The notes: generated by a model not told the origin, from the sequence alone. A stretch of 64,000 bases of DNA from Candidatus Micrarchaeota archaeon (GCA_016212505.1 JACRGB010000039.1:1590-65589); one strand, 5' to 3'; counted from the first letter of the stretch, positions 30,555 through 35,646 are shown. Made by a program: numbers and translations.

Positions 30555-30571
30555 TTTATTTTTCGTTAATC
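30541..30571 (+). repeat. left copy of direct repeat (tRNA-Glu 3-prime end plus 17 nt downstream)
   Basis: tcccaggcgaagcatttatttttcgttaatc aligns with 31326-31356 with 4 mismatches in 31 nt. Confidence 0.65.
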
Positions 30572-30672
30572 GTTTCCTGTTTCGGGTTTTTCGGTTTCGT
30601 TGCTGTATCGATCTCAAAACTGATCTTAAACCTACCCTAACCTTTTTATTTTATGCCAGGGTTTGCCTAAGT

Positions 30673-31242: not shown

Positions 31243-31325
31243 ATTCAAAAGAGTTTTCAGTTTTATTCCTCGGGTTTCCCGTTTCGTGCGGGGAACTGGA
31301 AACAGGAAACCGGAAACTTGGAATC

Positions 31326-32362: not shown

Positions 32363-33975
32363 ATATTTTTCCCCGCCCTTGCATTTTCCGAATAATCCAC
32401 AGGAACATCAACAATAGCAACTTCGCCGCTCTTTGCAGCTAAACTAAGGGTTTCTTCCAGCTCACTCATCCGCTCAACCCGGTATCCCTTTACGCCAAAG
32501 CTTTCAGCAAACTTGACAAAATCAGGATTACCAAATTTAACGCCAAAAACTTTTTTACCTACTTTTTTCTGGCTCCATTCAATCATCCCATAACCAGAGT
32601 CGTTGAAAATTACACCGACAAAAGGAGCATTAACCCTTTTGGCAGTTTCAATTTCCTGAGCGTTCATCATAAATCCGCCATCGCCATTTGCAGAAAATAC
32701 TGTTTTTTCAGGCTTTGCTAATTTTGCGCCGATTGCGCCGGGTATTGCGATTCCCATCGATGCAAGGCCGTTTGATATTACAACTGTATTTGGCTTATAG
32801 GTAGGAAATAACCTCGAAATCCATATTTTGTGCGATCCGACATCGCTTACTAGAATATCCTCCTCTTTCATGGCCTTCCTCATGGCGACCAAAATCTGCT
32901 GTGGCTTAAATGGAACTGAAGGAGTAAATGATTCGCGTTCCTTGTTGAAGTGAGCGCGCAGCTTTTTTATCGCTTCAAGGTCGGTATTCCGCCTATCTAT
33001 CAGGCCTGCGAGCAACTGGAGGTTGTGTGCTATGCTACCGATCAATTCAATATCAAACTGATAATATGAATCGACAAATTCTTCAGGGACCGTATCGATG
33101 CAGATTATTTTCTTGTTCCTGTCCTTGTTCCAATACTCGGGTGAGTATTCAACTAAATCATATCCGATTGTTATTATCAGGTCCGCCTTTCTGACTTCCT
33201 CGACAATATAATCCTCCTTTGTTCCAAGTGTTCCTAGCGAAAGCGGGTGGATTCCTGATATTGTGCCCTTGCTCATGAACGTTTTTGCAACTGGCAGGTT
33301 GGTTTTTTCCACAAACCCAATAAACTCATCCGCGCAGCGAGTCCGCTCGACACTGTTTCCGCAAATGATGATCGGATTTTTTGAATTGTTTATGAGTTCT
33401 GCCGCCTTTCTGATATCGATTTCATTCGCATACTGTTCAGGAACATCAACAACTTTTAGCGGTTTGGCCTCGGTTTGTGCTTTTGCAATGTCATTTGCTA
33501 TTTCGATGTGCGTTGCGCCGAATTTTTCACTGGTACTTATCCGAAATGCTTTTCTTACTACTTCAGGAACGCTATCTGCACTACTAATTCTTGTATTCCA
33601 TTTTGTTATTGGCTTAAACGCCCTTACAATGTCAATGAACTGGTGCTGTTCCTTGTGCATTTCCTTAAAATCCGCCTGCCCTGTTATTGCGACTAATGGC
33701 GAATGGTCCAAATTTGCACTCGCAACCCCGGTTGCCAAATTCAATGCCCCTGGCCCAAGAGTTGCAAGGCATACTCCTGGTTTGTATTTAATCCTGCCAT
33801 AAACATCTGCCATAAATGCAGCGCCCTGCTCCTGGCGCGCTGTTATGAATTTTATTTTATTCGAGCTGGAAAGCGATTCCATTACTTCTAGGTTTTCCTC
33901 GCCAGGTAAACCAAAAATATATTCAACGCCCTCGTTTTCAAGGCATTTTACCATTAAATCGCTTGCTTTCATCAA
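32359..33975 (-). CDS. thiamine-pyrophosphate enzyme, acetolactate synthase large-subunit family
   Basis: N-terminal Pyr domain (VEYIFGLPGEENL) and TPP-binding motif GDGGFMMNAQEIETA..N. 538 aa. Confidence 0.9.
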   Translation of the reverse strand: MMKASDLMVKCLENEGVEYIFGLPGEENLEVMESLSSSNKIKFITARQEQGAAFMADVYGRIKYKPGVCLATLGPGALNLATGVASANLDHSPLVAITGQADFKEMHKEQHQFIDIVRAFKPITKWNTRISSADSVPEVVRKAFRISTSEKFGATHIEIANDIAKAQTEAKPLKVVDVPEQYANEIDIRKAAELINNSKNPIIICGNSVERTRCADEFIGFVEKTNLPVAKTFMSKGTISGIHPLSLGTLGTKEDYIVEEVRKADLIITIGYDLVEYSPEYWNKDRNKKIICIDTVPEEFVDSYYQFDIELIGSIAHNLQLLAGLIDRRNTDLEAIKKLRAHFNKERESFTPSVPFKPQQILVAMRKAMKEEDILVSDVGSHKIWISRLFPTYKPNTVVISNGLASMGIAIPGAIGAKLAKPEKTVFSANGDGGFMMNAQEIETAKRVNAPFVGVIFNDSGYGMIEWSQKKVGKKVFGVKFGNPDFVKFAESFGVKGYRVERMSELEETLSLAAKSGEVAIVDVPVDYSENARAGKNI

Positions 33976-34025
33976 TCTTCTTTTGCTAAAGCCGATTTAA
34001 AAATTGTTTTCTTGAAAAATAGGGT

Positions 34026-34283
34026 ATGGAGATAATGGGCATAAAGGTCAACCAAGCGGGCATCCTTATGGCCGCAGGAGGCGGGGCTGTAGCTGCTTCC
34101 TCATTAGTTAGTGATGCACGAGGAACACCGTTCGAACTTGCTGGCGCATTTGCACCTGCTCCGGCCCGGGCTGTTTTTGGCGGATTAACCGCGGCAGTCG
34201 GAATTGGATTATTTGCAACGACTTTTTTGGCGTTTAGCTTCTTATCCTCAAGACTCGGAAAGAAACCCCGGAAGAAAAAGTAA
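34026..34283 (+). CDS. possible small Gly/Ala-rich tail-anchored membrane protein
   Basis: 85-aa ORF with tttaaaaa upstream and a C-terminal TM (GIGLFATTFLAFSFL) followed by KKPRKKK. An antisense ORF of similar size exists, so coding status is uncertain. Confidence 0.35.
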   Translation: MEIMGIKVNQAGILMAAGGGAVAASSLVSDARGTPFELAGAFAPAPARAVFGGLTAAVGIGLFATTFLAFSFLSSRLGKKPRKKK

Positions 34284-34291
34284 TTCACAAT

Positions 34292-34690
34292 CTAAAACAC
34301 AGACCCGCAAACTGAAAACTCAAAACAGGAAACAAATGAAATTTTGGGCTTCAGTTTGAAAAACTCATTTAATTCGTTTTTCAAAATCGCCCATAAATCT
34401 GAGACACGAAACATGAAACTGACCAATTGAAACCTCTCAGGTTTCAATGGTCCATTGAACGAGTTGTCGTTCAATTGGAGCACTGCAAATAGTTTATGGG
34501 CTTCAGTTTGTCCTGCGGGACAAATCAGCCCAAGTTTCCTGAGGGCAAAACCCAAAACGGAAAACTGGAAACCAACGAAACTTGGGCTTCCGCTTGAACT
34601 GCGGTTCAAGATCGCCCATAAGTCCTGAGTCACAAAACCCGAAACTGAGAACAGAGAACGACTTATGGGCTTCCCGGTTAGCAATGCACA
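34292..34690 (+). repeat. array of 3-4 degenerate hairpin-containing repeats plus a twin hairpin, GAAAC-rich spacers
   Basis: Units start at gggcttc (34346, 34498, 34584, 34667). Same-position stems differ but stay perfect: TTTGAAAAAC/GTTTTTCAAA, TTTGTCC/GGACAAA and CTTGAAC/GTTCAAG. Two of them have C(UGCG)G loops on the plus strand. Confidence 0.7.
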
Positions 34691-34696
34691 AAATAT

Positions 34697-34918
34697 AAGG
34701 AGCCTATACCATCCACTCAATCCTGTATCTTACAAGCACGGATCATTACGCTTATGGTTGCTTCTTTCGATCTGGCCAGGTTCACGAAGTGCTCCGCCAT
34801 ATAAGGCAGGACTTCAACGCTTCAGAGTACAGGGCATGCATTAAATGCAAAACGCCCCGGGCATTCGAGTCATCTAAGGGGACATATGAAGTCGGGACCC
34901 CTAGCCCCGCTCTAGCCC
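34697..34918 (-). ncRNA. ffs: SRP RNA (7S/4.5S family); ends approximate
   Basis: The minus strand reads ...GUGAACCUGGCCAGAUCGAAAGAAGCAACCAUAAGCGUAAUGAUCCGUG... This closely parallels the universally conserved SRP helix-8 region (E. coli ACCAGGUCAGGUCCGGAAGGAAGCAGCCAAGGCAGAUGACGCGUG), with a GNRA loop GAAA. The 5-prime GGGCUAG begins 26 nt after a TATA box, and an oligo-T run lies at about 34697. Confidence 0.75.
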
Positions 34919-34939
34919 AAAATAACTATGTTTCTAAGG

Positions 34940-34947
34940 TAATTTAA
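34940..34947 (-). promoter_or_regulatory. TATA box for the SRP RNA gene
   Basis: TTAAATTA on the minus strand, centred about 26 nt upstream of the GGGC start. Confidence 0.4.
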
Positions 34948-34959
34948 GGCTAATCTAAT

Positions 34960-35646
34960 TCAGAATACCCGCTCGCCAACGTAAACTTTTACTCCGCTCG
35001 GAGTTACCTTAAACGGCACAAGGTCGCGTGAGTGGTCGGTACCACGCATCTTGAAGATTTCAAGAGCGCGAATGCGGCGATCCTCACGGTCAAGATTGTA
35101 CAAGTTGATTATTCCATCCATTACAAAATGCTCAATATCAAATTTCATTTCTTCTTTTTTGGCAGTATTGGCCTCAACCGTAGTCAGTGTGGTTACTTCA
35201 AGATTTCTTAGCAATGAAAGGAATTCGAACAAAGTCTGCCGGTATTCGTTTTCATTTTTGAACGACAGCCGTATCATCGTTGAAGAATCAATTACTGCCC
35301 GTTTCACATTATTCGAAGTAATCCGATCCTCAAGGAGATTCGCAACTTCCTCAAGCTCGAACTTTTCAGGTTTTACTATTTCGAGCTTTTTTGACTTTAT
35401 CAGTTCGCTTACATCTGCGAGCATTGGGAATGTGCTCTTCATGTTTTCTACGATATCATCTTCAGTTTCCTCCAAAGTAATATACAGCCCGTTTTCCCCT
35501 GTTTTTGCTCCATGGTAAAGGAATTCAAATGCAAAAGAAGTCTTACCGGCACCAGGCCCGCCATAAAGGGCTATGTGCCGGCCTTTGGGGATCCCGCCAT
35601 TTAACATCTCATCCAATCCTGCTATGCCGGTTTTAATTCGATCCAT
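34960..35646 (-). CDS. KaiC/RadA-like RecA-superfamily ATPase (single domain)
   Basis: MDRIKTGIAGLDEMLNGGIPKGRHIALYGGPGAGKTSFAFEFLYHG (Walker A), plus Walker B VIDS. The start was taken at ATG 35646; the track ORF extension overlaps rfcS. Confidence 0.8.
   Translation of the reverse strand: MDRIKTGIAGLDEMLNGGIPKGRHIALYGGPGAGKTSFAFEFLYHGAKTGENGLYITLEETEDDIVENMKSTFPMLADVSELIKSKKLEIVKPEKFELEEVANLLEDRITSNNVKRAVIDSSTMIRLSFKNENEYRQTLFEFLSLLRNLEVTTLTTVEANTAKKEEMKFDIEHFVMDGIINLYNLDREDRRIRALEIFKMRGTDHSRDLVPFKVTPSGVKVYVGERVF

Follow-up and report, generated by a model that had tools for sequence, protein, structure and literature searches.

Hairpin units with sense and antisense copies of the gene end are stacked behind the SRP RNA gene of a Micrarchaeota archaeon

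We analyzed an array of hairpin repeats at positions 34292–34690 of a 64 000-nucleotide (nt) stretch of DNA from Candidatus Micrarchaeota archaeon (GCA_016212505.1 JACRGB010000039.1:1590-65589; hereafter the window), where it sits immediately 3′ of the signal recognition particle (SRP) RNA gene with its units in the orientation of that gene, i.e. on the minus strand. The array is probably, with a likelihood that we would put at about 60%, a stack of three small, gene-less hairpin DNA cassettes that are non-autonomous, recombine at the ends of stable-RNA genes and regenerate those ends. Inserted at the 3′ ends of stable-RNA genes, the units are dispensable and turn over rapidly within one archaeal family; they combine a sense and an antisense copy of the gene end with a maintained hairpin and have no promoter. 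The window's own assembly (G000) comprises 1.48 Mb in 46 contigs, with 41% G+C and 90% completeness.

Direct reading together with a repeat finder resolved the region into three hairpin units of ≈47–59 nt, one twin hairpin and GAAAC-rich spacers, with the following parts from the SRP RNA gene outward.

34663–34922, minus strand: SRP RNA gene, host of the array, a full-length match to Archaea_SRP of Rfam
34630–34665, minus strand: spacer 1, with the trailer TAAGTC (34660–34665) and the T-rich loop GTTCTCTGTTCTCAGTTTCGGGTTTTGTGA in gene sense
34583–34629, minus strand: cassette 1, gene-proximal, by direct reading and a covariance-model match of 58.5 bits (E 2e-13)
34544–34582, minus strand: spacer 2, with the trailer AGTTTC and the T-rich heptad tract GTTGGTTTCCAGTTTTCCGTTTTGGGTTTTGCC
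34497–34543, minus strand: cassette 2, a covariance-model match of 56.3 bits
34424–34480, no strand: twin hairpin, a separate double-hairpin module of ≈55 nt within spacer 3, with copies found by nhmmer
34345–34403, minus strand: cassette 3, distal, a covariance-model match of 50.8 bits
34292–34344, minus strand: final T-rich tail AAATTTCATTTGTTTCCTGTTTTGAGTTTTCAGTTTGCGGGTCTGTGTTTTAG, by direct reading, reaching the stop codon of an open reading frame (ORF) of 85 amino acids (aa)

Read on the plus strand, the three units (34345–34403, 34497–34543 and 34583–34629) have the order TGGGCTTC[A/C]G, hairpin, ATC(A/G)CCCA, 6 nt and CTGAG, with stems of TTTGAAAAAC/GTTTTTCAAA, TTTGTCC/GGACAAA and CTTGAAC/GTTCAAG, respectively, and two TGCG loops. 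The original prediction, made from the window sequence, had counted three to four such units; three are complete, but the presumed fourth at 34660–34680 corresponds to the SRP RNA gene's own 3′ end, GGGCTTCC at 34666–34674 being its antisense. The twin hairpin that it had also pointed out was recovered by the repeat finder.

In gene sense, the order of a unit becomes CTCAG, a 6-nt leader, TGGGC, a linker of 3–4 nt, the hairpin, a linker of 5–6 nt, GCCCA and a tract rich in GTTTC or GTTTTC. The TGGGC is an inverted copy of the last bases of the SRP RNA gene, a direct copy of whose 3′ end, GGAAGCCCA, closes the unit before the T-rich tract, such that the 3′ ends of units read CGGAAGCCCA or CTGAAGCCCA. 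The hairpin consists of a conserved foot (YTTG..CAAR) and a variable top. The parts of a cassette are thus a 6-nt trailer (t) with a loop, usually of ≈36 nt and T-rich, that ends in CTCAG; t′H′, the inverted copy of the trailer and of the gene's last bases (...TGGGC); a linker, the hairpin and a second linker; and H, the direct copy of the gene's 3′ end (GGAAGCCCA). Cassette 1 accordingly reads CTCAG-GACTTA-TGGGC-GAT-CTTGAAC-CGCA-GTTCAAG-CGGAA-GCCCA, cassette 2 reads CTCAG-GAAACT-TGGGC-TGAT-TTGTCC-CGCA-GGACAA-ACTGAA-GCCCA, and cassette 3 reads CTCAG-ATTTA-TGGGC-GAT-TTTGAAAAAC-(12-nt loop)-GTTTTTCAAA-CTGAA-GCCCA. The host SRP RNA, from its 5′ start UGGGCUAGAGC to its 3′ end CCGGGAAGCCCA(UAA), opens with UGGGC, closes with CGGGAAGCCCA and is followed by the same kind of GTTTC/GTTTTC-rich tract. 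Its full-length Archaea_SRP match scored 60.7 bits (E 1e-12), under the Rfam gathering score of 96.5 bits, and a TATA-like box, TTAAATTA, lies ≈25 nt upstream of the gene (34940–34947 in plus-strand numbering).

Each element's 3′ end with its 6-nt trailer is complementary to the leader and TGGGC of the next element. Spacer 1 and the CTCAG of cassette 1 thereby make up the 35 nt between the arms of an 11-bp helix, GCCCAUAAGUC/GACUUAUGGGC, found by the repeat finder as an inverted repeat (I5, 11/11 complementary) and present also in the minimum free energy (MFE) fold of the minus strand. Likewise, the trailer of spacer 2 and the gene-end copy before it (AGCCCAAGUUUC) pair with the leader region of cassette 2, GAAACUUGGGCU, as an inverted repeat (I3, 12/12 complementary) with 38 nt between its arms. 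The corresponding arms farther out, GCCCAUAAA/UUUAUGGGC, pair across a gap that the twin hairpin has widened from ≈48 nt to 103 nt.

For quantitative analyses we aligned 38 distinct units from 16 species (alignment A3). Comparing the leader of one unit with the trailer of the element before it, the helix extended on average 4.3 nt past the 5-bp core and reached 6–7 nt in 23 of the 38 units, as compared to 0.9 nt when a unit's own trailer was used and 0.5 nt with shuffled upstream sequence. The gap between elements was 45–52 nt, or ≈100–112 nt with a twin hairpin and 11–15 nt in compact forms, and tracts of three to five T residues were present in every spacer. Standard pairs filled 93.4% of the stem cells of the alignment (79% in shuffles), 69 cells held double-sided changes as compared to 22 in shuffles, none of 500 shuffles attained the observed score, and sliding the partners by a single column lowered pairing to 53% or less. 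These figures lean toward structure, as the alignment was fitted to the model, though the margin is large; a DNA palindrome yields the same signal. Stem covariation as originally proposed was thereby borne out. The accompanying statement that the stems are completely different in sequence and yet paired holds with regard to pairing through compensatory changes, but not entirely with regard to sequence, since all of them have the conserved foot YTTG...CAAR in common.

Among modelled pairs there were 11 cells of G·U type and 13 of A·C type, i.e. no strand bias of wobbles, and in the MFE structures wobble pairs numbered 18 (sense) and 17 (antisense). In 25 of the 38 units the sense strand was the more stable one (Wilcoxon p = 0.02), which at best amounts to a weak preference. 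Loop identity leaves the strand unsettled, with other members of the family having C(GAA)G, C(GTA)G or C(GCA)G triloops in gene sense. The window region folded better than shuffled sequence on both the minus strand (z −4.5) and the plus strand (z −6.8), as DNA palindromes do. As to promoters, a TATA-like A/T octamer at −36 to −18 was found for 1 of the 38 units, as compared to 27 of 31 SRP genes.

To recover the family systematically in its own genome, we used the array region in BLAST searches against the whole assembly and then a covariance model based on nine units; of the regular expressions tried, a strict one matched only the window locus and a looser one was noisy. These genome-wide searches, which the original prediction had proposed together with nhmmer, found arrays behind further stable-RNA genes, and every convincing member of the family was located directly 3′ of such a gene on the same strand. 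The predicted association of the repeats with stable-RNA genes was thus upheld, with members following the SRP RNA gene and at least eight tRNA genes, the latter cassettes bearing the ends of those tRNAs. The tRNA hosts are as follows (contigs of the assembly are denoted C).

C17:5933–6080, plus strand: intron-bearing tRNA gene, four units
C3:754–825: tRNA-Ala gene, three units
C43:26950–27217: tRNA gene, one or more units
C18: tRNA gene, one or more units
C34: tRNA gene, one or more units
C36:7796–7938: tRNA gene, one or more units
C38:39825–40053: tRNA gene, one or more units
C3:22881: tRNA gene, one or more units

The terminal helix of the units changed with the host gene. It was GTCCA/TGGAC behind two tRNA-Ala-type genes, and the unit terminus was CCCCCCTAGCGA behind tRNA-Ser (C36), matching the last 12 nt of that tRNA at 12/12 positions, GCGCGGCA behind tRNA-Arg (C38) and GCCCGA behind the C34 tRNA. 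The interior could still be recognized across hosts, with linkers GAT or TGA ... CGGAA or CTGAA, the foot YTTG..CAAR, and CTCAG. The units are hence better seen as a shared core held between a sense and an antisense copy of the preceding gene's end. We also considered whether H′ could be a copy of the 5′ end of the gene, but behind tRNA-Ala the units have TGGAC, which complements GTCCA exactly, rather than the GGGC of the tRNA (G3·U70); the unit behind tRNA-Ser is ambiguous in this respect between a copy of the 5′ end and an inverted copy of the 3′ end. Two units behind different tRNAs (C17:6290–6415 and C3:22560–22885) have an identical 21-mer, TCTTCAACTGCGAAGCAGTTG, in common. The twin hairpin has 8–9 copies in the genome as found with nhmmer, some of them inside tRNA introns (C38, C43) and others in further arrays (C3, C14). 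The C17:6290–6415 and C3:22560–22885 units, moreover, have extra hairpins within the apical loop of their core hairpin, the C3 copy holding ≈110 nt of such additional hairpins; cassettes thus appear to accept insertions of further modules.

The distribution among relatives was patchy. The first covariance model had matches in 14 of 36 other species of the genus and in none of 24 genomes from the other families of the order, and a second model (R2, built from the 38 units), applied to 301 genomes from across the phylum, had matches in 14, which represent five genera of a single family. The SRP RNA could be located in 31 of 40 genomes of the genus, and reading the downstream sequence at 32 SRP loci, one of them located separately, we found that 15 carried 1–3 units while 17 had none; copy number was thus 0–3 at SRP loci, with up to 4 behind a tRNA. 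On the SRP RNA tree, the presence of units requires at least six changes on well-supported branches and 11 by parsimony, and presence was no more clustered than with shuffled labels.

Two pairs of close relatives (denoted G with numbers) provide filled and empty sites. A precise 50-nt indel distinguishes G004 from G007 and a precise 87-nt indel distinguishes G002 from G013, with flanks 92–100% identical and with boundaries within the repeated gene end. The sequence thus runs ...CCGGGAAGCCCA directly followed by CCCATGATCC in G007, and ...CCGGGAAGCCCA, the 50 extra nucleotides TCTCAAACAGATGGGCGGTCTTGAAAGCCGGGCTTTCAAGCGGAAGCCCA and then CCTATAATCC in G004. In both pairs the original trailer remains with the distal copy and the outgroups are empty, which identifies both indels as gains with the insert supplying the new end of the gene. 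The regenerated gene end and displaced direct copy are hence seen at both of these filled and empty sites, and a gene-end copy closes every unit. The direct repeats of the gene end that bound the indels vary in length between 5 and 12 nt and could represent shared identity of the att type rather than a target-site duplication. In the recent G002 insert the inverted copy is already imperfect (TGTGC), suggesting arrival from a donor copy and not templating on the spot. The leader of the G028 unit, GGAAGA, complements not the trailer of G028 itself (TTTTCC) but that of the relative G005 (TCTTCC), which fits with a helix that was perfect at birth and has decayed since. Finally, the first unit is identical at 43 of 43 positions in G022 (C19:294–352) and G062 (C16, locus L063:410–468), with diverged spacers and SRP RNAs (≈10% for SRP), which points to recent transfer, gene conversion or constraint.

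Taken as a mechanism, the cassettes would have been added successively to the 3′ end of the SRP RNA gene, with the twin-hairpin module later entering one of the spacers. A cassette would enter by recombination within the short identity H that it has in common with the gene end, upon which the gene end would be regenerated and the old end displaced downstream, as in the logic of tRNA-integrating islands; repeated entry at the regenerated end should then give tandem arrays in the orientation of the gene. The T-rich loop would equip the regenerated gene with a new oligo-T region for termination, placed before the antisense segment, and this could keep the insertion harmless. The sense and antisense target copies together with the maintained hairpin suggest a folded single-stranded intermediate, which might mimic the target duplex.

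Candidate enzymes for such events are the two tyrosine recombinases of the genome, of ≈410 aa each (PF00589); their genes, at C14:8239–9459 and around C38:31100–32330, are on other contigs than the array and behind other tRNAs. In the regions C14:8138–9459 and C38:31100–32560, each gene lies ≈100 nt behind an intron-bearing tRNA gene ending in ...CCCTGCA, as conventional integrated elements do. The two recombinase loci share a conserved junction, TTCTAATC.GACCAGAGG...AATTTGACAGAATTCTGTCAAATTTCGC, and the tRNA end GCTCCCTGCA recurs 21–24 kb downstream on C14, where it may delimit an island on its far side. A fragment with a reverse-transcriptase domain (PF00078, 69 bits), containing a TAG in frame, was furthermore noted at C38:26512–27009 on the minus strand, 4.5 kb from the C38 integrase gene, and reverse-transcriptase and integrase genes are adjacent also in G010, G014 and G027.

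Several points weigh against recombining cassettes. No enzyme is tied to them: PF01797, the Y1 (IS200/RAYT-type) transposase, gave no matches in G000 and was found in 9 of 40 genomes of the genus, without obvious link to the unit-bearing species, and the presence of integrase, Y1 transposase or reverse transcriptase showed no clear association with unit-bearing species among those 40 genomes, a test weakened by the incompleteness of metagenome-assembled genomes. No excised or circular form was seen. A move to a different gene would require a re-tailoring of the inverted and direct target copies for which the proposal does not account, and since a double-stranded circle of 50–90 bp is physically implausible, a single-stranded or other intermediate must be assumed. 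The constant orientation, the T-rich loops and the identical unit of G022 and G062 could also reflect a role at the RNA level.

Such a role forms the main rival explanation. The units could be functional cis-acting RNA modules, co-transcribed by read-through with SRP RNA or tRNA and serving 3′-end formation, termination back-up or protection; possible routes include the 11-bp helix formed by the gene's 3′ end and trailer with the next leader, or mimics of the terminal helix that occupy end-processing enzymes. We consider this unlikely, although a unit orientation that always follows the gene, T3–T5 tracts in every spacer, covarying hairpin stems, the slightly better folding of the sense strand, the identity of the G022 and G062 units in spite of diverging spacers, and a complementarity of trailer and leader that is kept while the sequences differ between species (TAAGTC, TTTCTC, TTTTCC, CAACTC) would all agree with it. 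It is difficult to reconcile with units missing at 17 of 32 congeneric SRP loci, at least six gains or losses, copy numbers that vary between 0 and 3 at SRP loci and up to 4 behind tRNA, and wobble pairs without strand bias; the G028 leader likewise suggests decay since birth rather than selection, and archaeal termination is not known to require hairpins. The two explanations are not exclusive, as any element behind an essential RNA gene must spare the formation of its 3′ end. Local replication artefacts, i.e. in-place template switching or slippage at palindromes, with quasi-palindrome correction keeping the arms complementary and with neither a mobile intermediate nor a function, appear more improbable still. 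Template switching does yield inverted and direct copies of neighbouring sequence, the arms are kept paired with no strand bias, and no transposase is linked to the units. That process would nevertheless not account for the same core (GAT or TGA ... CGGAA or CTGAA, YTTG..CAAR, CTCAG) behind unrelated genes in five genera, for interior modules common to different loci, or for a recent G002 insert that came with an already imperfect inverted copy.

We hold it to be highly improbable that the array is a double-stranded series of palindromic protein-binding sites for a regulator or nucleoid protein near stable-RNA genes. Its half-sites TTGAA..TTCAA are indeed palindromic, conserved and recurrent, but the compensatory changes to unrelated stems (TTTGTCC, TTTGGCGC, GTGAAATTT) preserve pairing and not a binding consensus, and the termini follow the host gene. 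The lead option of the original prediction, a plus-strand array of structured noncoding RNAs (ncRNAs) with UNCG-type tetraloops, retains only a marginal probability. It was based on two C(UGCG)G loops on the plus strand, which folded with z −6.8, but any DNA palindrome folds on both strands, other members have GNA triloops in gene sense instead, a promoter is found on neither side, and the array would be antisense to its host gene at every locus in every species. The plus strand as functional RNA thus found no support, with every array in the orientation of its upstream gene, UGCG loops offset by the gene-sense triloops and no wobble bias. An independent or novel ncRNA gene array was not supported, in view of the single TATA-like box among 38 units, as compared to 27 of 31 SRP genes, and of units being present at 15 of 32 SRP loci and hence absent from about half of the congeneric ones.

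Known RNA classes were also compared with the units. A K-turn or C/D-box reading of the GAU/CUGAA internal loop failed, as the tandem G·A register fits one unit whereas others have UAU/CACUU. A C/D box sRNA was likewise rejected: CUGA occurs in some units (the CTGAA linker), but RUGAUGA on neither strand, and other members have CACTT or TGTGT. An H/ACA RNA was discarded as well: two units have an ACA after the plus-strand hairpin, but their pocket is smaller than required and the ACA is not a conserved feature. An archaeal intron motif of the bulge–helix–bulge (BHB) type consists of two 3-nt bulges on opposite strands with a 4-bp helix between them (or the relaxed hBH form). It was discarded, as the linkers (3–4 nt on the 5′ side and 5–6 nt on the 3′ side) lie opposite each other and form a single internal loop, bounded by the terminal helix and the foot of the hairpin. 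With Rfam at gathering thresholds, the whole window gave a tRNA-Glu only, and a permissive scan of 33500–35500 gave chance-level matches inside the array (snoR97, E 3.4; HCV_5BSL1, E 0.55); the Rfam comparison that had been proposed thus matched no family there.

Considering known mobile elements, we noted that genomic islands and proviruses integrate at the 3′ ends of tRNA and tmRNA genes by means of tyrosine integrases, as described in the Islander paper (PMC4383910). Like such islands, the cassettes target the 3′ end of a stable-RNA gene, the insert regenerates the gene end, a displaced copy marks the far boundary, and tandem stacking occurs; the present genome has two conventional integrase islands of that kind behind tRNA genes. 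Unlike such islands, the cassettes are of 50–90 nt without integrase or any other gene or ORF, the repeated identity amounts to 5–12 nt, each cassette contains, in addition, a conserved hairpin and the target with 6 nt more in inverted form, and SRP RNA is among the targets. Scars of repeated integration by large islands could be dismissed, as the units have their own conserved interior rather than fragments of the gene body.

Repetitive extragenic palindromic (REP) elements, with their BIME and REPIN forms, are bacterial and are mobilised by RAYT Y1 transposases. Like these and like miniature inverted-repeat transposable elements (MITEs), the cassettes are short, gene-less, hairpin-forming, clustered, present or absent between relatives, and maintained in their stems. 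They differ in that G000 has no Y1/RAYT gene, in that the ends are copied from the host gene instead of forming fixed terminal inverted repeats, and in being inserted only behind stable-RNA genes, always in the orientation of the gene. A MITE-like element, which had been listed as an option, was the closest of the original proposals to recombining cassettes; the units do not have the fixed terminal inverted repeats of MITEs, their ends differing between loci, and G000 has no Y1 transposase (the only transposase family surveyed). The cassettes may also be compared to recombination sites that are used as folded single strands, such as integron attC or the attP(+) hairpin of CTX phage that is used by Xer recombinases. 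Here too structure is conserved beyond sequence, and the sense and antisense copies could fold as a duplex imitating the chromosomal target. Unlike integron attC sites, the cassettes have no associated integron integrase and no cassette ORFs. In summary of these comparisons, the cassettes resemble tRNA-integrating islands in the way they work and REP/MITE-type repeats in appearance, and they lack the defining features of each, namely an integrase inside the element, a RAYT or parent insertion sequence, fixed terminal repeats and dispersed targets. Full-text literature searches retrieved no published description of such cassettes.

For ARMAN-2, also of Micrarchaeota, heavily disrupted tRNA genes and a broad-specificity epsilon-2 splicing endonuclease have been described (PMC3239211), a picture with which the small size and heavily disrupted tRNA genes of the window's genome agree, and gain of archaeal tRNA introns through mobile elements has been proposed (PMC3293823). 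The introns of this genome use the same kinds of modules as the arrays, namely T-rich/A-rich palindromes and twin hairpins. The units differ from introns in lying outside the mature RNA and in having an internal loop of 3 nt versus 5 nt that is not a BHB, whereby no splicing is implied. A more far-reaching proposal, which we consider speculative and on balance doubtful, is that the cassettes of these ultra-small archaea could constitute a new class of homing elements that lack an integrase, in which the antisense target copy, folded as single-stranded DNA or RNA, would recreate or pair with the target and guide insertion, the T-rich loop would be a replacement terminator, and the same pool of modules would feed the growth of tRNA introns.

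Should the cassettes be recombining elements, they would be among the smallest site-specific insertion elements known (50–90 nt and no gene), a sense and an antisense copy of the target within the element would seem to encode its recognition, and they would be confined to positions behind the most conserved genes of a reduced genome. They may help to explain the inflation of stable-RNA loci with hairpin modules in Micrarchaeota, including their intron-rich tRNA genes, as well as the poor performance of standard tRNA and SRP finders on these genomes, with only 6–9 tRNAs detected here. In genome annotation such arrays should not be called ncRNA genes or ORFs, and the filled and empty sites of close relatives constitute a concrete system for studies of the recombination mechanism.

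As to the GAAAC-rich spacers, their motif occurs also at 31293–31321 and, inverted, at 30571–30603 after tRNA-Glu, just as originally reported. The spacers had on that basis been regarded as a separate dispersed element; being T-rich tracts in gene sense, they fit better with archaeal oligo-T termination signals. Spacers of this kind may act as general terminators, and a regular-expression survey of T-rich heptad tracts in relation to ORF ends gave 34 matches with a pattern that was too strict to be informative.

With regard to the annotation of the locus, a 142-aa ORF at 34292–34720 on the minus strand extends over the entire array and into the 3′ end of the SRP RNA. As a protein-coding gene it is almost certainly spurious, overlapping the SRP RNA and the hairpins and having a repeat-driven translation. 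The convergent 85-aa ORF at 34026–34283 on the plus strand is hydrophobic-looking and has no Pfam match. No SRP RNA of the genus reached the gathering score of Archaea_SRP, the best one having 95.6 bits as compared to 96.5, such that standard annotation would miss the gene; in one relative, the bacterial large-SRP model scored above the archaeal one. Similarly, Rfam and ARAGORN detected 6–12 tRNAs in this 90%-complete genome, so most of the tRNA genes must escape standard finders. The tRNA genes at C18:15850–16330 (minus), C34:12880–13330 (minus), C17:5933–6080 (plus), C43:26950–27217 (minus) and C38:39825–40053 (plus) have one to three long introns (50–190 nt), some of them in the D-loop or T-loop, that are built of T-rich/A-rich palindromic heptad tracts and twin hairpins. 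In the window itself, the segment 31250–31330, 3′ of a PsbP-like ORF, holds a T-rich heptad tract, GTTTTCAGTTTTATTCCTCGGGTTTCCCGTTTCG, and after it the A-rich inverted version of this tract, GGAACTGGAAACAGGAAACCGGAAACTTGG, a palindromic layout that also makes up tRNA introns elsewhere in the genome.

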